Source: an archaeon (GTDB lineage: Archaea; Aenigmatarchaeota; Aenigmatarchaeia; CG10238-14; SCSR01). Taken from it: DNA of 30,416 nucleotides. The DNA lies in NCBI GenBank assembly GCA_035289185.1, contig DATDXT010000033.1:1-30416 (forward strand). The letters run 5' to 3'. The position numbers and the translations under genes are program-made. Below, one piece after another: positions 5,324 through 22,967 of the stretch; positions within the stretch are counted from its first letter, which is position 1; each line of letters opens with the position of its first letter. Under the pieces are notes generated by a model. It saw only the letters and a list, made by a program, of their open reading frames with translations. It made no database searches and was not told where the DNA came from.

Positions 5324-7829
5324 CTACTCCACCTCTTTCTACTTTGGACGGATCTATCCCATCTCCGCCTGGGAAAAATTGCACTATGTTGTTTGAACTA
5401 TCCCTTACTGTACCATCGTATTCTACTTTCAAATCCTGCAATGCGCCTACAAGCCTTCTTTCCATGTAACCGGAATGTCTTGTCTTGAGAGACTTGTCCA
5501 TCAAGGATTCTCTTGAGTTGATTGCATCAAAAAAGAACTCGAAAGGCATAAGCCCATTCACGAAACCTCTTCCTACAAAACCACCTGTCTCCAAAGTCAC
5601 ATCTCCTTTTCTGAAATGAGGAAATACTCTTTGATAGTATCCTTTTTCTATCCTTTCGCCCATTATCATTTCCTGTCCGACCATTGCTGCAGTCTGTACT
5701 ATGTTGACTACATCTCCTCTTGCACCGCTTACAGCCATCTGCAACGTAGGATTGTCTTTCATATGTTTGGTGATGACGTCTCCAACCTCATTCAATGCTT
5801 TGTTGGCTCTTCTCTTGATCAATGTCTCTACACTTTCTTTCGGTGTCCTTCCCACCAAAATTTTCAATTCATTCTTCTTGTATTGCCTTAGCAAATCATC
5901 AGTCTCTGATTTAACCTGTACCAAGATATCTCTTACTTTTCTTTCTCCGCTCTCATCCAATGACTGATCTGATATGCTTATTGAAAATCCATGTTTCATC
6001 AAGAAGCTGAGAGAAAGCTTTGAAAGCTTGTTCAAAAATTCTATGACATATGCACTGCCGAACTGGTCGCCCATCTTGCTCAATATCTTTCCACTCTCTG
6101 CACCAACTGCGGCTTTATCAATATATCCTTCCTTTAACATACCATCTTCTATTACAACTTTTTCACCGGACTTGGCTCTGAATTCTATGAACAGTCCTTT
6201 AGGCAGGAAAAGACTCAATATCTCCTTTCCATTCATTTTGTTCTTGTCAGGTATCTCTATGTTCTGGTCAGCCGATCTTATCAGCTGTATGAAATCCTTC
6301 CTTTCCAATTCAGGATTGTACTTGGTCAAAAGATAAAGACCAGTTACATAATCTTGTCTCAATCCAATAATAGGACCGGAAAATCTGGGACTTCTCAAAT
6401 TCTTTTCTACAGACATCAAGTTCTCAGCTTCGACAATCGCTTCCTCTAATTGTGGTATATGCAAGTTCATCTCATCCCCGTCGAAATCTGCGTTATAAGG
6501 AACAGTGACTATAGGGTTCAATCTCAATGTCCTGTGGTCCAAAACCTTTACTCTGTGTGCCATTATACTCATCCTGTGCAATGATGGTTGGCGATTGAAG
6601 AAAGATATATCTCCATTGATCAAATGCCTTTCAACAATATATCCGGGAGATAATTCTTTTGTCAATTCCTTACCATTTTCAGCAGTTACCTTTTTCTTCC
6701 TAGCATCAGGTCTTATGATGTAGTTTGCACCAGGCCATACTTCAGGTCCACGCTCTACAAACTTCTTCACAGTTTCCAGATTTTCTGATGTTATCCTGAT
6801 AGGAACAGTCAATTCTTTTGCTATGACCATAGGCACTCCTACTTCATCTATGTCTATGAATGGGTCTGGACTGATTACACTTCTTGCACAAAAATTCACG
6901 CGCTTGCCAGCAAGGTTTCCCCTGAACCTGCCTTCCTTCGTCTTCAATCTCTGCGATAATGTTTTCAATATTCTTCTTGATCTGTGTCTTGCAGGAGGCA
7001 CGCCTGTAAGTTCATTGTCGAAATAAGTAGAAACGTGATATTGTACAAGCTCCCATAGGTCAACAAGTATGAAATCCGGCGCTCCCAATTCTATGTTCTC
7101 CCTCAACCTCTCATTTATTCTTACAATGTCTACAAGCTTGTGAGTCAAATCATCTTCAGACCTTTCTCCTGTCTCCAAAGTAATCGACGGTCTGACAGAA
7201 ACTGGAGGCACAGGGAACAATGTCAGGACAAGCCATTCTGGCCTGAAGTTCCTGAATCCCATTAATTTGAAATCTGCATCTGTGACCTTCTCCAACTTTT
7301 CCCTTATCTGCACAGCGCTCAATATCTCGCTGCCGTCTGCTATGCTGTAAGGCTTTATGAACTTCAACTTCCCTTGTTCGGCCTTGCAGTAGGGGCATTT
7401 CTTTTTGACAGCTTTTATCAGATCCTTCAAGCTGGTCTTCTTTTCTTTTGCCTTGTCCAATTCTTTTTCATCTATCATTATCCTGCTGCACTTTTTGCAT
7501 GTGACTTTCAAGATAGAGAAAATAATCTTTGCATAAAGAACATGTATGATAGGTTTTGTCAATTCTATATATCCAAAGTGTCCGTTGCAGTCACCGATAG
7601 TTCCACCACAAGTCCTGCATCTTATTCCAGGATCGACGACTCCCATTCTTGGATCCATTATGCCACCTTCTATAGGATAGCCTTCCTCATCATAAAGATC
7701 AGTCTTAGTAATCTTTGCCGCAGCCATCTTCTTTACCATTTCTGGATTTACTATTGTGAATTCTATCGAGTTAACTAGCATAATCATCAAGTCTCCTTCA
7801 GATTTATCTTTGGATAGATAAGCATGCAT
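5289..7829 (-). CDS. rpoA1: DNA-directed RNA polymerase subunit A' (Rpo1N); a likely true start lies a few codons inside the ORF (MLVNSIEF...)
   Basis: Zn-binding Cys motifs and the catalytic [12 protein letters not shown] motif. 846 aa. Confidence 0.95.
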
Positions 7830-17664: not shown

Positions 17665-18969
17665 TTGGAGATATGTATAGTCAATTACGTGGATAAATCT
17701 ACATTGGAAACACTTGAGACAAAACTTCTTCTAGACAACGAAACCCGTGATGTATATGCCGCTCATAAAAGTGCGATAGAACTTTACATAGAAAACGAGA
17801 ATGACTACAGCCTTAAAGATCGTGTAAAGACACTGAAAGAAATAAAACTTCCAAACGACAAGCTTGACAGGATATATGAGAAGTACGGTCATACAGAGGA
17901 ATCTGCAGATATAGACGGATTAATAAGATACACCATAGGCGATGTGTTCGATGAACTTATCCAGGATGCCAAGAAAGCGGCTTTTGAGGAAGTCGACAAA
18001 AAGATAGTTGATGAACTATTATCCGACATAAAGGAAAAAGCAAGCTGCAGAAGAAGCATGTCCATCAGGGAAATTTTCTACGGTTTTAGGCACAACTTTT
18101 ACAAGGCTGGATATCTGAAAGATGTATACGATGGCATGCTATGCAAGGTAAATTACAATCTGTTGGGCAAGCATGAATACAGGGACATGAGAGTTTTGAT
18201 CAGGAGAAAGACTCCTATGTCCAAAAAAGTAGATGTGATTGCAATGTATGATGTCAAAAGAGATGCTGGAGATATAGTTCAGGGAATGACTTTCCTTGAA
18301 GACGTCTATGAAAATGAGATAAAAAAAGTAGTCCCAAACCCATCCAAACATTACGGAAAACCAAGATGGCTTACTAAAGGAGACATTACATTCTTTGCAA
18401 CTGTGGCTGCTTCTTATGCTATAACATCTGTCTTTCCTGGTATAGAAGGGATGCTTCATGATGGAGGGCCAATAAGGTTCCTGGGATATACATTAAATGC
18501 TGTTGGAATAGCTCCTGTCGCATTGGAAAAAGTAGGTGCAATCTATGTCTTGAAGAAAATAATCGGCAGACGTACAAGAGGATACATGAATAAGAGAACT
18601 CTTAATACAATAGCCAGAGGTTATGATATAGACAATTTTGGCCTTCTGGCAAACAAAGTTACGAAACAGCAATCCATAAGAGCACATCTTTGTTATGCGA
18701 CTATATGGCTATACCACGATGTTGATAAAAATACACTGTATGAAAGATTGAAAAGATATAACATTGAGAAAGACGAGATAGACGATTTTTTGGACATATT
18801 CGAAAATCATATTAGGATAGTGGAGATCGAGAATGACAAGTATACTCCAAACAAGATGTTGATAGACATACCTATATCCAAGATCTCAAAAATTGGCGTG
18901 AGCGAAAAAGTTAAAGTAATCAGCAATAGAGTAGACAGTCTTGAAAACGATTATCCTTTAAGTATTTAA
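17665..18969 (+). CDS. Hypothetical protein, 434 aa, with two central hydrophobic segments
   Basis: Long ORF with a GGAG Shine-Dalgarno-like motif at its start and no recognisable motifs. It lies between ftsY and srp54. Confidence 0.5.
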   Translation: MEICIVNYVDKSTLETLETKLLLDNETRDVYAAHKSAIELYIENENDYSLKDRVKTLKEIKLPNDKLDRIYEKYGHTEESADIDGLIRYTIGDVFDELIQDAKKAAFEEVDKKIVDELLSDIKEKASCRRSMSIREIFYGFRHNFYKAGYLKDVYDGMLCKVNYNLLGKHEYRDMRVLIRRKTPMSKKVDVIAMYDVKRDAGDIVQGMTFLEDVYENEIKKVVPNPSKHYGKPRWLTKGDITFFATVAASYAITSVFPGIEGMLHDGGPIRFLGYTLNAVGIAPVALEKVGAIYVLKKIIGRRTRGYMNKRTLNTIARGYDIDNFGLLANKVTKQQSIRAHLCYATIWLYHDVDKNTLYERLKRYNIEKDEIDDFLDIFENHIRIVEIENDKYTPNKMLIDIPISKISKIGVSEKVKVISNRVDSLENDYPLSI

Positions 18970-19391
18970 GCCGAAACTGGTTGTTTGTAGTAGTAAACAT
19001 TAGGAGGAGATCCTTCTGCCACCCCTGCGTTTTTAAAAGCGTTCCTGCCTTCATTCATCTTTAGCATGTATTTGTCAACCAAAAAGCGAAAATGATATCC
19101 GTCCTTGTTATATTCGACCCAAGCATCACCCTTGTTTGGTCCTCTGACTTTCATCACATATGGTCTTTTGCCATCGTGGTGCAATTTTATGTATATGCCA
19201 TTTTGATAAAGCTTTGCTGCTTCGTCTCTGTAATGCTCAAAATTTATACCTTCAAATTCTTTGATCATCTCTGGTGTGAACTCTGTATATAGTTCAGTGG
19301 TTAATTCTTTCATTGCAAACATCCGTAGACGGTACCTCAAAGTAGTCCGTTTGTCACTTAGGATACCTATAATATAATTGGTTTTCCCCAT
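18966..19391 (-). CDS. Hypothetical protein, 141 aa
   Basis: ORF convergent with the upstream gene with a 4-nt overlap. No recognisable domain. Confidence 0.45.
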   Translation of the reverse strand: MGKTNYIIGILSDKRTTLRYRLRMFAMKELTTELYTEFTPEMIKEFEGINFEHYRDEAAKLYQNGIYIKLHHDGKRPYVMKVRGPNKGDAWVEYNKDGYHFRFLVDKYMLKMNEGRNAFKNAGVAEGSPPNVYYYKQPVSA

Positions 19392-19549: not shown

Positions 19550-20890
19550 ATGGTATTGGAAGACCTTGGAGGAGGATTGAAAGCAGCTTTCAACAGGCTG
19601 GTATCCTCAGTCACAGTGGACAAGTCATTGATAGAGCAGACAGTCTCAGACATAAGAAGGGCTTTAATTCAATCAGATGTAAATCTCCAGCTTGCAAATG
19701 ATATTGCAGACAAAATAAAGAAAAGATCGATGGAGGAAAAGACACCTTCTGGCATGAGCAAGCGTGAACAAGTAGTAAAGATAGTATACGAAGAGCTCGT
19801 GAACATGCTTGGAAAGAAGTTCCAGCCATTGAAGCTTGACAAGAAACCATCCATCATACTTATGGCAGGCTTGCTTGGAGCAGGAAAGACCACAAGCACG
19901 GCCAAACTGGCAAGATACATACAGAAGCAGGGAAGGAATGTCGGAATCATAGGAGCAGACGTCTACAGACCAGCGGCTTTAGCGCAATTGGAACAGTTAG
20001 CAAAGCAGATCAACGTCCCAGTGTACGGTGAAAAGGGAAATAAGAATGCTGTGAAGATTGTAGAGAACGGGATGAAAGAGTTTGCGAAGAAAGATGTCAT
20101 CATTATCGATACAGCAGGCAGGTACAAGCAGTCAGAAGAGTTGATGAAGGAGATAAGGCAGATAGGCGAAAAGGTCAAGCCGGACGAGACCATACTCGTC
20201 ATCGATGCCACTATAGGACAGCAGGCCAAACAACAGGCTGAAGCATTCCACAAGGCAGTTCCGATTGGCAGCGTGATGATAACAAAGATGGATGGTACTT
20301 CAAAAGGCGGAGGCGCGTTGAGCGCTTGCAGTGTCACTGGAGCTAATGTCAAGTTCATAGGAATGGGAGAGAAGATAGACAGCCTTGAATTGTACGATCC
20401 TGACAGGTTTGTTTCCAGGATGTTAGGTTTGGGTGATTTGCAGACATTGCTGGAGAAGGTGAAGGAGACAGGAGTCAGCAAAGAATCAATGGAAAAGATG
20501 ATGGAAGGAAAATTCACATTGCAGGACTTCATAGAACAGATAGAGAATGTAAGCAAGGTAGGATCTTTATCGCAGATAGCAGGAATGATACCTGGGTTTG
20601 GCAGCGTGAAACTGCCTAAGGAAGCATTGGAGAAGCAGGAAAGAAAGATGAAGATATGGAAGTTCATAATCCAGAGCATGACAAAGAAGGAGAGAGAGGA
20701 TCCAGCGCTTGTTGATGCAGCTAGAATCAAGAGGATAGCAAAAGGTTCTGGCAGGCAGGAGATGGAAGTAAGGGAATTATTGAACCAGTACAGTTCAATG
20801 AAGAAGATGATGAAGGGACTTGGCGGAGTAAGAGGAATGGATAGGGGTCAGATGAAGGAATTGGCCAAGCAAATGGGATTGAAGTTTTGA
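19550..20890 (+). CDS. srp54: Signal recognition particle protein SRP54
   Basis: Starts MVLEDLGGGLKAAFNRL (canonical SRP54 N-terminus). NG domain (GLLGAGKTTSTAKLA, DTAGR, TKMDG) and a Met-rich M-domain. The in-frame upstream extension from 19466 is not conserved. Confidence 0.95.
   Translation: MVLEDLGGGLKAAFNRLVSSVTVDKSLIEQTVSDIRRALIQSDVNLQLANDIADKIKKRSMEEKTPSGMSKREQVVKIVYEELVNMLGKKFQPLKLDKKPSIILMAGLLGAGKTTSTAKLARYIQKQGRNVGIIGADVYRPAALAQLEQLAKQINVPVYGEKGNKNAVKIVENGMKEFAKKDVIIIDTAGRYKQSEELMKEIRQIGEKVKPDETILVIDATIGQQAKQQAEAFHKAVPIGSVMITKMDGTSKGGGALSACSVTGANVKFIGMGEKIDSLELYDPDRFVSRMLGLGDLQTLLEKVKETGVSKESMEKMMEGKFTLQDFIEQIENVSKVGSLSQIAGMIPGFGSVKLPKEALEKQERKMKIWKFIIQSMTKKEREDPALVDAARIKRIAKGSGRQEMEVRELLNQYSSMKKMMKGLGGVRGMDRGQMKELAKQMGLKF
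20863..20890 (+). repeat. Direct repeat copy 1 (last 9 codons of srp54: LAKQMGLKF-stop)
   Basis: ggccaagcaaatgggattgaagttttga matches 21960..21987 at 23 of 28 positions. Confidence 0.85.
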
Positions 20891-20921
20891 GTTATCATGT
20901 AACACGTGTTACACAGCCAAA

Positions 20922-20934
20922 TTTTGTAGTCACC
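20922..20934 (+). promoter_or_regulatory. TTTTGTAGTCACC motif copy 1 upstream of fic
   Basis: Exact 11-13-mer repeated at 20954..20966 and 21943..21955, and inverted at 21924..21933. Confidence 0.5.
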
Positions 20935-20953
20935 TATATACAAAAAGTTTATA

Positions 20954-20966
20954 TATTGTAGTCACC
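20954..20966 (+). promoter_or_regulatory. TTGTAGTCACC motif copy 2, 12 nt upstream of the fic ATG
   Basis: Exact motif repeat. Confidence 0.5.
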
Positions 20967-20977
20967 TAATACTTATT

Positions 20978-21928
20978 ATGCACGTGGAAATAAGGAACGT
21001 TGGCAGAAAGAAAAAATATTACCTTGCACACTCATTCAGGCATGATGGGAAGGTCAAAAAGTTCAGATTTTATCTTGGAACTGATTTGACAAAAACAGAA
21101 TTAAACGACAAAATAAAACACGCAAAGGAAATTTTGGATGAGAGGATAAAAGCATATGGAAAAGTAGGAGACCCGTTCTATACAGTTATTACATCCAAAG
21201 AATTGGAATATGTAAAACATCTGGAAGATAAATACAGGATGGAAGAAATAAAAGTTTTGCACCTGTCTGAAAAAAACTGGGCCGAATTTACAAAAGCATT
21301 CACATACGATACCAATGCCATAGAGGGATCCACCGTGACTTTTACAGAAGTCTCTGACATATTGGAAAAAAAAGAATGGCCTAAAGAAAAGCAAAAATGG
21401 GAGATATCTGAAACATATGGAGTTGCGGAAGCCGTTGATTTCATAAGAAATTCTAGGGAAGACATCTCTTTAAAATTGATAAAAGAACTCCACAGGATTG
21501 TGTTCAAGAATTCCAAGGATTTTGCAGGCAAATTCAGGAAGAATGGAGAGGAGGTCGCTGTAGTGGACGCCTTTGGCAATATAAAACATAGAGGAGCCCC
21601 ATCATCGCAGATTGTCAGGCTTCTTAATGAATTGATACGTTGGTATGGCAAAAACAACCGGAAATATCCTGCATTGGTGTTGGCTGCTGTGGTACACAAT
21701 CATTTTGAAACTATACATCCATTCAAGGACGGAAATGGGAGAGTCGGAAGGCTTTTGTTGAACAACATATTGTTGAAGCACGGTTTGCCGCCCGTCAACA
21801 TAGAGCTGAAAAGCAGGCAGGAATACTACAGGGCACTGCAGGAATATCAAAAAATGAGGAATCTTCGACCAATGATAGAGCTTATATTGAGAGAATACAG
21901 GAGATTTATGAAAAGCCTGAACAGGTGA
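20978..21928 (+). CDS. fic: Fic/Doc-family protein (class II Fic AMPylase with N-terminal inhibitory helix)
   Basis: Canonical Fic motif HPFKDGNGRVGR and an upstream inhibitory motif TNAIEGS ((S/T)xxxE(G/N)). Confidence 0.9.
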   Translation: MHVEIRNVGRKKKYYLAHSFRHDGKVKKFRFYLGTDLTKTELNDKIKHAKEILDERIKAYGKVGDPFYTVITSKELEYVKHLEDKYRMEEIKVLHLSEKNWAEFTKAFTYDTNAIEGSTVTFTEVSDILEKKEWPKEKQKWEISETYGVAEAVDFIRNSREDISLKLIKELHRIVFKNSKDFAGKFRKNGEEVAVVDAFGNIKHRGAPSSQIVRLLNELIRWYGKNNRKYPALVLAAVVHNHFETIHPFKDGNGRVGRLLLNNILLKHGLPPVNIELKSRQEYYRALQEYQKMRNLRPMIELILREYRRFMKSLNR

Positions 21929-21954
21929 CTACATTTCTATGTTTTGTAGTCACC
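21924..21954 (+). terminator. Hairpin (10-bp stem GGTGACTACA / TGTAGTCACC, 11-nt loop) overlapping the fic stop codon; terminator-like or recombination site
   Basis: Perfect inverted repeat seen directly. Its 3' arm is the third copy of the TGTAGTCACC motif. Confidence 0.45.
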
Positions 21955-21959
21955 CAGTC

Positions 21960-21987
21960 GGCCAAGCAGATGGGATTGAAATTCTAG
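21960..21987 (+). repeat. Direct repeat copy 2: displaced duplicate of the srp54 3' end encoding AKQMGLKF-stop
   Basis: ggccaagcagatgggattgaaattctag. All 5 differences from copy 1 are synonymous or stop-for-stop. Confidence 0.85.
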
Positions 21988-21995
21988 AAATCCAT

Positions 21996-22958
21996 CTATT
22001 TTAGATAGTTGTAAATGGTTCTAGATACATTGCTGGCTGTTTCACTGAAATCTTTTTTTGTTGTCCCAGAACTCATTATACATAACATATAAGGTTTGTT
22101 TGGTGCATAGATTATTCCACAATCATGATAGCTTTTTGTAGGACCCCAATCGCCTATCTTATGAGCCACTTTTATATTGTCTGGCAAACCAGATACTATT
22201 CCGTAATCAAATTTTGTATCTGAAAGCAGAGAAAGTATAAAGTTAGAAAATGTTCTTCTAAGATAGGCAGAATAGTATAAAGCGCGTAAAATGTTCATAT
22301 AATTTTTTGGAGTGATTGCAGTCGAACTTATATCAGGCGAAAATGAGGGTGGAGGAAGTCCCATTGCAATATAAGCTTCTGCCAGATCGCCATATGTCAG
22401 TTGTCTGACAAGTACATTGTATGCTGTGTTATCAGATTCGTTTATAACAAAGTTCAGAGCAGATTTCACATCAATGTCATATCCATATCCCTTAGAAGCT
22501 AGACTGCCAAATGTAAGATTAGGTTCTATATCAGCCTCGGAAATTGTCAATTTTGTTTCCATAGACAGGTAGCCATCCTCTAATTTTTTTACTATAGCGA
22601 TCACTGCTGGAGTTTTAAGTAGGCTTGCTGGTACGAACATATCCCTTTCATTAATTCCAAACCATGCTCCTGTTATAAGGTCTTCAAAATAAATACCATA
22701 ATGGCCTTTTGACGAGTTTGTTATTTTCTCAACTTCTGTTTTTAATGGTGTATACGAAACTGTAAGGTATTGTTGTCCCCGAAGAAAATTATTCACTTCC
22801 ATACTTGCTGTCTGAGGATCAATGAGTGCATAATTATCAGAACGGTCTCTTTCCCAAGAGTTGCTTATGATGTAAACTATGAGCGAAATATTTATAACAA
22901 CCATTATAGAAAACCAAAACTTGAGAGATTTCAAATCTATTTCAATTTTAGACACCAT
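21996..22958 (-). CDS. Membrane-anchored class A beta-lactamase-like serine hydrolase
   Basis: N-terminal TM anchor. SxxK (PASLLKTP), SDN (INESDNTAYN) and KxG (HKIGDWG) motifs occur in class A order and spacing. The ATG at 22958 is preferred over the TTG at 22967. Confidence 0.6.
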   Translation of the reverse strand: MVSKIEIDLKSLKFWFSIMVVINISLIVYIISNSWERDRSDNYALIDPQTASMEVNNFLRGQQYLTVSYTPLKTEVEKITNSSKGHYGIYFEDLITGAWFGINERDMFVPASLLKTPAVIAIVKKLEDGYLSMETKLTISEADIEPNLTFGSLASKGYGYDIDVKSALNFVINESDNTAYNVLVRQLTYGDLAEAYIAMGLPPPSFSPDISSTAITPKNYMNILRALYYSAYLRRTFSNFILSLLSDTKFDYGIVSGLPDNIKVAHKIGDWGPTKSYHDCGIIYAPNKPYMLCIMSSGTTKKDFSETASNVSRTIYNYLK

Positions 22959-22967
22959 TTCTACCAA

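Follow-up and report, generated by a model that had tools for sequence, protein, structure and literature searches.

How did a lone Fic gene come to stand between two copies of the end of srp54, and how has srp54 remained intact? The question is raised by contig DATDXT010000033.1 of the archaeal assembly GCA_035289185.1 (Aenigmatarchaeota, lineage SCSR01), of which we analyzed positions 1 to 30,416; this whole stretch of 30,416 nucleotides (nt) is called the window. The answer that we favor, and consider reasonably probable, is that a self-regulated Fic cassette, mobilized in trans, has integrated at srp54. Positions 20863 to 21959 would be an integrated copy of a small mobile cassette that is carried by many DPANN and some other archaea. 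Its core is a conserved unit of about 1.03 kilobases (kb), running from motif a to motif d (listed below), in which a class II FICD-like Fic protein is fused to a small predicted DNA-binding domain and has its own TATA promoter.

The target gene and its surroundings are arranged as follows.

19550..20890, plus strand: srp54, the target gene, 446 amino acids (aa) from the ATG at 19550 (Pfam SRP54_N, SRP54, SRP_SPB).
20863..20890, plus strand: proximal direct repeat (attL-like), GGCCAAGCAAATGGGATTGAAGTTTTGA, the present srp54 end, ..AKQMGLKF-TGA.
20891..20924, plus strand: spacer of 34 nt from the srp54 stop to the first motif, not conserved among related cassettes.
20978..21928, plus strand: Fic gene, 316 aa (Pfam Fic, E = 1.7e-21), the only gene between the repeats.
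21960..21987, plus strand: distal direct repeat (attR-like), GGCCAAGCAGATGGGATTGAAATTCTAG, an orphan copy encoding AKQMGLKF-TAG.
21996..22967, minus strand: convergent Beta-lactamase2-family (bla-like) gene (Pfam PF13354), the right chromosomal flank.

The proximal repeat holds the last nine codons of srp54, stop included, and the srp54 orthologues (P0002-P0013) are also 446 aa long, at 78 to 81% identity. The two 28-base-pair (bp) copies are identical at 23 of 28 positions, and the longest unbroken identity is 11 bp. No further copy of the 28-mer exists in the window with up to three mismatches allowed, and 100 dinucleotide-preserving shuffles gave no match. Read in the frame set by its own stop codon, each copy translates to AKQMGLKF and a stop; all five differences are transitions, and each is either synonymous or exchanges one stop for another. 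When five random substitutions were simulated, peptide and stop were kept with P = 1.2e-4 (3.4e-3 if only transitions were allowed). This pattern implies, at the level of sequence, that both copies have been under coding constraint. Because AKQMGLKF-stop was kept despite five differences, each copy would once have been a coding end in a separate lineage.

An earlier reading of this DNA, made without database searches (the sequence-only reading), had described a 28-bp repeat that brackets a Fic-only segment and a distal copy that re-encodes the srp54 end with five silent changes. That description was accurate. Its broader proposal, an inserted element with a surrogate srp54 3' end, is supported by the coding constraint on both copies, by SRP54 relatives without Fic, and by 3'-end duplications elsewhere.

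The shuffles without a match and the coding-preserving divergence (P of about 1e-4) make it very improbable that there was no insertion. On that view Fic would be an ordinary resident gene, and the repeat would be due to chance, to local tandem duplication, or to misassembly; in its favor, the searches turned up no empty site, and the cassette does not differ from its flanks in GC content. The same arrangement occurs in L001, L002, L007, and L177 to L184, which come from at least eight independent samples; because it recurs in at least 10 independent assemblies, an assembly artifact is excluded and the repeat is real. Relatives without Fic at the locus and the recurrence of flanking repeats across the family also argue for an insertion.

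No empty srp54/bla-like junction was found in the retrieved contigs, which were those with the exact SRP54, Fic, or bla-like protein and those of the five nearest relatives by SRP54. The exact bla-like protein is present on 10 contigs, and Fic adjoins it in all 10. The empty junction that had been predicted did not materialize: every same-species contig is occupied, and distant relatives have a different downstream gene. In the SRP54 relatives (78 to 81% identity), the upstream synteny is kept (prefoldin, FtsY, and a 434-aa protein), neither Fic nor the motif follows srp54, and the downstream genes are unrelated; the convergent gene downstream of srp54 in L008 is likewise unrelated to bla. One candidate, L183, for which the gene table listed a gene 8 bp from bla, as an empty junction would have, proved to be the occupied form with an open reading frame (ORF) mis-called through the distal repeat. 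The frame of the distal repeat is open for 67 codons back into the Fic 3' end (window 21784-21987), in a frame other than Fic's, and one gene caller reported a 67-aa protein ending in ..SAKQMGLKF there (seen as L183 1465-1668). This open frame is probably due to chance and can mislead automated searches for empty sites.

The relatives' srp54 genes end in ..AKQMGMNF or ..ARQLGFNL. Because both window copies encode ..GLKF, unlike these relatives, the surrogate end would have been derived from a close relative of this host. As to which copy was the host's own, the stop of the distal repeat is 8 bp from the stop of the convergent gene (21996-21998). The distal copy has the CAG codon of L003, L008, and L009 and the TAG stop of L003 and L008 (L009 ends with TAA), whereas the CAA and TGA of the proximal copy differ from the CAG and TAG/TAA of these three. 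The distal copy looks native because it lies at a natural, compact junction and shares CAG and TAG with relatives. These features hint that the distal copy is the original srp54 end of the host and the proximal copy the element-borne surrogate.

The protein between the repeats had been called a class II Fic AMPylase of toxin type. The class II assignment stands: in addition to the Pfam match, the catalytic motif HPFKDGNGRVGR (residues 247 to 258) fits HxFx(D/E)GNGRxxR, and the inhibitory motif (S/T)xxxE(G/N) is present as TNAIEG (residues 112 to 117). The residues H, F, D, G, N, G, and R are invariant across 35 sequences (family motif HPFxDGNGRxGR), and TNAIEG is invariant in the alignment. 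A Foldseek search of the PDB with the model (mean predicted local distance difference test score [pLDDT], 78) ranked FICD chains first (6i7l; E = 9e-12) and also matched BT_2513 (3cuc; template-modeling [TM] scores, 0.57/0.66). The enzyme would accordingly be better described as FICD-like class II Fic with an intact autoinhibitory Glu than by the "toxin-type" label. Like FICD/HYPE and Bacteroides BT_2513, it has the Fic fold, the catalytic motif, and an N-terminal inhibitory helix with (S/T)xxxE(G/N). Unlike FICD, the N terminus of which consists of tetratricopeptide repeats and a transmembrane segment, the cassette Fic begins with a three-strand-plus-helix domain.

This N-terminal domain (residues 1 to 62) was modeled as a three-stranded sheet and a long helix, followed by the FICD-like Fic domain; modeled alone, it had a pLDDT of about 90. 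The predicted fold weakly resembles AP2 and integrase arm-binding domains, and no sequence match was found in Pfam or the PDB. In the arm-type domains of tyrosine integrases (lambda, Tn916, and high-pathogenicity island [HPI] Int) and in AP2, an N-terminal three-stranded sheet is likewise packed on a helix. Of 1.84 billion cluster representatives, a profile of the domain matched only 195, some of them fusions to swivel-domain proteins of the phosphoenolpyruvate (PEP)-utilizer type and to a class II aminoacyl-tRNA synthetase (aaRS)-like domain. The fusion partners are PEP-utilizer (phosphohistidine swivel) proteins of 530 to 580 aa and class II aaRS-like (tRNA-synt_2b) proteins (P0343, P0325, and P0372, at loci L170-L173; P0352, P0351, and P0384). 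At L170 four PEP-utilizer paralogues stand in tandem.

Four 10-bp sites and a promoter surround the Fic gene.

20925..20934, plus strand: motif a, TGTAGTCACC, -53 relative to the Fic ATG; putative operator, at which family-wide conservation ends on the left.
20948..20955, plus strand: TATA-like box TTTATATA, between motifs a and b, about 25 to 30 nt before the ATG; probable promoter element.
20957..20966, plus strand: motif b, TGTAGTCACC, -21 relative to the ATG; putative operator downstream of the TATA box and upstream of the transcription start.
21924..21933, minus strand: motif c, GGTGACTACA (an inverted copy), which contains the Fic stop TGA.
21945..21954, plus strand: motif d, TGTAGTCACC, 21 bp after c, start to start; right limit of family-wide conservation.

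In the window, TTGTAGTCACC has three exact copies and one inverted copy with one mismatch, all around Fic, compared with 0.34 expected by chance. Among 80 related loci, the motif falls at -52 and -21 relative to the start codon and at -5 and +16 relative to the stop codon. Upstream, the two copies have the same orientation in 59 of the 80 and are inverted in 9; downstream, they are inverted in 67, with the TGA stop embedded in the first arm. Start-to-start spacing is 31 bp upstream (range, 30 to 33), about three helical turns, and 21 bp downstream (20 to 23), about two. At the TATA position, about 80 loci have a conserved box of the TTTAAATA/TTTATAAAT type, the spacing of which implies, if the box is read correctly, a leaderless Fic mRNA. 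Sequence similarity between loci ends abruptly at the outer motifs a and d, because of which the conserved unit is put at about 1.03 kb. The sequence-only reading had suggested searching the rest of the genome with the motif for further cassettes and a recombinase gene; the motif is not a genome-wide signal for either but a Fic-family-specific site at fixed promoter and stop positions and most likely an operator.

The arms c and d had 52 one-sided changes versus 3 two-sided changes. Because the arms vary independently, c and d are better explained as protein-binding sites than as a hairpin; this variation, together with a spacer that has no T-run, rules out the pair as a hairpin or terminator. 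The promoters of the PEP-utilizer genes with the N-terminal domain are laid out in the same way, a TATA box between sites at about -52 and -21, and have a different motif (ATGTCCACA / TGTGCCCAT); these genes have no downstream motif pair and no flanking repeats. Across the subtypes, it is the N-terminal domain, rather than the C-terminal enzyme, with which the motif co-varies: the Fic protein at L021 has a PEP-utilizer-like N-terminal domain and carries GTGTGCCCAT. Because of this co-variation, the motif is probably the operator of the Fic protein itself. The domain is probably a sequence-specific DNA binder and sites a and b its autoregulatory operator. Only the Fic cassettes have sites c and d, the role of which may be to complete a loop for repression, to act as an insulator for the gene, or to define the right end of the element. 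In the tandem cassettes of L107, the c-d pair doubles as the operator of the next gene.

Is the cassette mobile? Fic homologues at 60 to 70% identity number in the thousands in DPANN metagenomes. We assembled a set of 94 loci, 14 from species-representative genomes and 80 that a profile of the family-specific N-terminal region found in metagenomes. The architecture is near-invariant among Aenigmatarchaeota, Woesearchaeota, Pacearchaeota, Micrarchaeota, a Nitrosopumilales metagenome-assembled genome (MAG), and others. The MAG locus (L014; CAZMON010000002.1, 3949-4968) is a canonical Fic cassette with a protein that is 55% identical and with all four motif copies; it indicates either transfer beyond DPANN or a binning error.

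Related cassettes occur in unrelated surroundings, which is evidence that the unit moves. Cassette DNA is 88 to 91% identical in L093/L097 and in L100/L104, the flanks of which have no detectable similarity; L094 and L116 are 97% identical and have a common repeat, beyond which they diverge. The two nearest relatives of the window's Fic gene (70% identity) adjoin PIN or MNT toxin-antitoxin genes; a conserved specificity for srp54 was rejected on this ground.

These findings bear on the possibility that the cassette is a decayed remnant, namely that a larger, integrase-bearing element at srp54 lost all but Fic and is now immobile, which would make it a cis-mobilizable element (CIME) in the strict sense. 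The same minimal unit, ending exactly at a and d, is found in about 90 loci from several phyla, which speaks against decay because independent deletions would not yield identical ends; nor does decay fit with cassettes that are 88 to 97% identical in different flanks or with the lack of a Fic-plus-integrase parent among 150 neighbor ORFs or viral contigs. It does fit with att-like repeats that lack a recombinase, as in the definition of CIMEs (PMC7563491), with the apparent fixation of the cassette in 10 of 10 contigs of this population, and with the absence of clear repeats from most related loci. We rate this explanation as unlikely. The sequence-only reading had offered both a remnant and mobilization in trans; the recurrence of the one-gene unit speaks against a one-off remnant, and mobilization in trans is favored.

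To score flanking repeats, we compared the 300 bp to the left of Fic with the 300 bp to its right and took the highest-scoring direct repeat without gaps; mismatched pairs of loci provided the null. (A scan of 3-kb flanks was set aside because shared targets contaminated its null.) The null scores had a mean of 10.9, a 99th percentile of 17, and a maximum of 19.5. Scores of at least 17.5 were obtained for 18 of 78 loci (about 23%); this window scores 19. The repeats are 13 to 74 bp long and 80 to 100% identical, and their sequence is different in every lineage. At L091 the duplicated sequence is a protein-gene end on the plus strand; both copies retain frame and stop, and three amino acids are changed. 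In L029 and L020 the repeats are the ends of minus-strand genes; the functional copy adjoins motif d, and the other copy has decayed. The repeat of L163 overlaps a tRNA 3' end, that of L010 directly follows an intron-containing tRNA, and those of L021 and L164 are tRNA-like T-arm sequences. Duplicated 3' ends of protein or tRNA genes flank homologous cassettes far above chance.

In one lake-sediment lineage, an intergenic element of about 100 bp is intact at L100_a, L100_c, and L093_L and is split by a Fic cassette at one position in L092 and L104, with a duplication of 10 to 13 bp (GAAAGAAGAAATC). This is a paralogous comparison of empty and occupied sites. The element (..ACTTATACATGAGGCATACATTATATTCTCAGAAGAAATCAGTTCCCGACTTTTCCATAACGGCCTAGTATCTGCCTTAGCTTTAGAAAAAGAAAAATCC..) has several copies per genome (L100 at about 455-600, about 3993, and 5895-6040; L093 2818-2948; the flanks of L090, L092, and L104). 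It is a preferred landing site of Fic cassettes and separates unrelated groups of genes (TctA plus PLD, Fic, and TBP plus CxxCxxCC). In L090, the only locus scanned, Rfam gave no family at gathering score for these elements.

The longest flanking repeat, at L157 (790-863 / 1954-2027; 74 bp, 73/74 identical; CTCAGGCAGACGATCCGAAAGTCGAAGACTTTTGGAGC...GAGCCTGACG), resembles a structured noncoding RNA, with no Rfam family at gathering score. At L110 (3355-4287), and also at L132 and L153, the main cassette is immediately followed by a member of another, divergent Fic subfamily (HPFEDGNKR), which has a related N-terminal domain and its own upstream motif, AATGTAAGATAAG, in two copies. These three loci have a conserved upstream hairpin, GTAGTGCCTAAAAA..TTTTTAGGCACTAC, and an element, ..AGCGGACGGTCTGAT.., in both flanks; hairpin and element are possibly an unannotated structured RNA used as a target.

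The diversity of the repeats, which vary in length (13 to 74 bp), identity (80 to 100%), and position and match whatever gene is targeted, would be expected if circular or linear DNA with Fic and a captured srp54 fragment had entered by the host's own homologous or microhomology recombination (Campbell-type integration), and it agrees with this that no recombinase was found. Yet the longest unbroken identity at srp54, 11 bp, is very short for RadA-dependent recombination. Integration of this kind also leaves the conserved terminal motif pairs unexplained, and the targets are strongly biased toward the 3' ends of genes and tRNAs, a hallmark of integrase-type att sites (PMC6563490). We regard it as rather unlikely.

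Where, then, would a recombinase come from? Pfam searches of the 26 window ORFs found no recombinase or integrase domain, either between the repeats or elsewhere in the window. The absence of an integrase between the repeats, already pointed out in the sequence-only reading, extends to the related cassettes: all-versus-all clustering of 598 flank ORFs gave no family that recurred at more than five loci, and Pfam gave no recurrent recombinase among the 150 nearest-neighbor ORFs, in which the commonest families were Fic (6, which are tandem cassettes), MNT/HEPN, and housekeeping enzymes. No parent or helper element was seen beside about 90 cassettes, and the only tandem partners were other Fic cassettes. 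In IMG/VR viral contigs there was no relative of the N-terminal domain and no match to the 20-nt core. The motif hits in IMG/VR were rejected as carriers, being unrelated 15-bp tandem coding repeats or phage iterons; TGTAGTCACC occurs in contigs L174 and L185-L202 in 15-bp tandem coding repeats and in iteron-like arrays of high-GC phages.

Could Fic itself do the work? No other protein is encoded between the repeats, and nothing else is conserved across phyla together with the ends; putative binding sites lie at both extremities; the N-terminal fold resembles integrase arm-binding and AP2 domains; and the difference in targets between close relatives suggests that specificity is not set by a classical integrase. 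An autonomous one-gene element, in which Fic binds the four TGTAGTCACC sites and drives its own excision and integration at gene 3' ends, is in our estimate improbable. Its routes would be phosphoryl transfer on DNA by Fic, or the AMPylation or recruitment of a host topoisomerase or recombinase, and the target would be set by the short host-derived segment. Quite improbable, too, is the corresponding role for the protein, as a mobility protein that gathers the four terminal sites through its N-terminal domain and whose Fic domain transfers phosphoryl groups on DNA or modifies or recruits a host topoisomerase or recombinase at the ends. Fic enzymes are not known to act on DNA, and in its catalytic and inhibitory motifs the protein is an ordinary FICD-like AMPylase/deAMPylase. 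Moreover, the domain and promoter layout are also found on PEP-utilizer genes that have no downstream sites or repeats, so autoregulation alone explains the domain.

Under mobilization in trans, which we prefer, entry into srp54 would have been a conservative site-specific recombination between the host 3' end, now the distal copy, and a homologous segment borne by the element. That segment would now be the proximal copy with its 34-nt tail, which finishes srp54; srp54 would stay intact because the element-borne copy replaces the displaced host end. The circular form would have the order d, 5 nt, core, 34 nt, a, with the junction TGTAGTCACCCAGTCGGCCAAGCA...TGAGTTATCATG...TTTGTAGTCACC, and the empty srp54-bla junction would read ...GAATTGGCCAAGCAGATGGGATTGAAATTCTAGAAATCCATC.... 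By binding the four sites, the N-terminal domain would both regulate its gene tightly, possibly by looping the ends, and mark the ends of the element. The presumed crossover region has repeated 10-bp sites, direct and inverted, on its two sides, an arrangement like that of the arm sites of attP. Because the cassette encodes no recombinase, we assume that one is supplied in trans, whether a host Xer-type enzyme, another tyrosine recombinase, or the product of a helper element.

Several observations weigh against this scheme. The insertion in this genome is deduced and was not observed, no empty srp54/bla-like site having been found. No candidate for the recombinase in trans was identified, and there was no excised circle or d-core-a junction among contigs shorter than 2.7 kb, nor any terminal overlap. 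About three-quarters of the related loci have no significant flanking repeat, and some of the repeats in the lake-sediment lineage (L090 and L100) are possibly neighboring copies of a multicopy element and not true target duplications. The lengths of the repeats and their positions relative to the motifs vary widely, which a single sequence-specific integrase explains poorly, and targets differ even between cassettes that are 70 to 90% identical. Finally, the aaRS-like fusion may mean that the N-terminal domain is a general nucleic acid-binding module.

How does the cassette compare with known elements? The sequence-only reading had set it apart from tRNA-targeting elements by its protein-coding target. 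The target is indeed a protein-coding gene, but such targets are not new: archaeal integrases use att sites of 29 to 69 bp in tRNA genes and the 3'-distal parts of protein genes (PMC6563490), and integration into protein-gene 3' ends is known in both archaea and bacteria (PMC6563490, PMC7563491). Streptococcal CIMEs, with sizes from 1.2 kb, lie in the 3' ends of fda, rpsI, rpmG, and rplL (PMC7563491). Like the Fic cassette, they have att-type repeats in the 3' end of a housekeeping gene, the end of which is kept, and carry cargo only, with no integrase or transfer genes (PMC7563491). CIMEs, however, are heterogeneous deletion products of integrative and conjugative or integrative and mobilizable elements (ICEs/IMEs), and a known parent, whose att sites define them, mobilizes them by accretion; the Fic cassette is one conserved single-gene unit with four putative protein-binding sites and many targets, is archaeal, and has no parent or helper that we could see. 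Of the features that define a CIME, it has the att sites without recombination or transfer genes and shows neither deletion from a parent nor accretion.

The integrated mobile genetic elements (iMGEs) of archaea (those of Thaumarchaeota, and crenarchaeal att sites) resemble the cassette in their targets (tRNA genes, protein-gene 3' ends, and intergenic sites), in repeat lengths, and in the restored gene end (PMC6563490). They are 5 to 100 kb long and encode a tyrosine integrase or casposase, whereas the Fic cassette, at 1.07 kb, has neither (PMC6563490). Flanking repeats, one copy of which completes the target gene, are present here, as in integrase/att-type elements, and an element-encoded integrase is absent.

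Phage 21 and e14 supply the icd gene of E. coli with a substitute 3' end of about 165 bp; they are prophages with a cognate integrase. In both these prophages and the cassette, the element brings a diverged, coding-equivalent 3' end of its target, and the copies differ mostly at synonymous sites; the icd surrogate is much longer.

The modules mobilized by Xer recombinases (integrative mobile elements exploiting Xer [IMEX] and the pdif modules of Acinetobacter) consist of one or two genes, often for toxin-antitoxin systems or resistance; they encode no recombinase and are moved by that of the host. Their dif-like sites are about 28 bp long with an 11-6-11 layout, and pdif modules do not duplicate the ends of host genes. 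The Fic cassette has in common with them its small size, the lack of a recombinase, and short sites with inverted arms as boundaries. It was rejected as an Xer/dif module: its arms are 10 bp long and 21 or 31 bp apart, start to start (gaps of 11 or 21 nt), and its upstream pair is direct in 59 of 80 loci, none of which is the layout of dif.

Integron cassettes, archaeal ones included, have attC sites with the consensus RYYYAAC...GTTRRRY and depend on intI and attI. With them the Fic cassette shares a single ORF of about 1 kb, a structured 3' site, and the occurrence of tandem cassettes, but it is scattered singly among housekeeping genes. An integron cassette was rejected: the 3' site, GGTGACTACA-N11-TGTAGTCACC, has no GTTRRRY core, neither intI nor attI lies nearby, and the Fic gene is preceded by a TATA promoter of its own. 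A DNA transposon or insertion sequence was rejected as well, since there is no transposase and the flanking duplications (13 to 74 bp) are imperfect and not of fixed length; an 11-bp inverted repeat is present (20925-35 / 21923-33).

Surrogate-end integration in the 3' ends of protein genes and att-flanked elements without a recombinase are already known. What appears to be undescribed is a conserved one-gene Fic cassette with four cognate sites, its spread over archaeal phyla, and the pairing of an N-terminal domain with its operator; we found no description of any of these three in the literature. DPANN archaea have tiny genomes and few recognized mobile elements. If our reading is true, this widespread cassette, which has no recombinase and inserts at the ends of tRNAs and essential genes yet leaves them unbroken, would represent a new class of small mobile DNA in archaea and would be convenient for tracing gene flow among DPANN, Thaumarchaeota, and others. 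The unannotated small domain and its conserved 10-bp site, with variant sites before PEP-utilizer genes, point to a new family of archaeal transcription factors or operators. Whatever moves the cassette could reveal the hijacking of a host recombinase in archaea, like the exploitation of Xer in bacteria, or a new Fic-associated activity.

Some minor features of the locus and its relatives remain to be described. A perfect 16-bp palindrome, TGTAACACGTGTTACA (20898-20913), begins 8 nt past the srp54 stop, in the 34-nt segment thought to be cassette-borne; it occurs once in the window, is not conserved in other cassettes, and could be a terminator or a binding site. The rest of the window is housekeeping DNA, with genes for RNA polymerase subunits, fibrillarin/Nop5, FtsY, FtsZ, and the CCA-adding enzyme, and no tRNA gene was found in it. 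Between ftsY and srp54 are two ORFs without a Pfam match (17665-18969 and 18966-19391). The first, of 434 aa, is syntenic in the relatives at 78% SRP54 identity; in place of the second, a 141-aa minus-strand ORF, those relatives have an 87-aa Fe-S_biosyn protein, so this position is also variable. Elsewhere, Fic cassettes often lie beside small genes of the toxin-antitoxin type (PIN/VapC, MNT-HEPN, and DUF5615/PIN-like; L175 2491-2907, L176 36-976, and L092 2217-2573), which suggests that there are small islands of selfish or defense modules inside the housekeeping regions of DPANN genomes.

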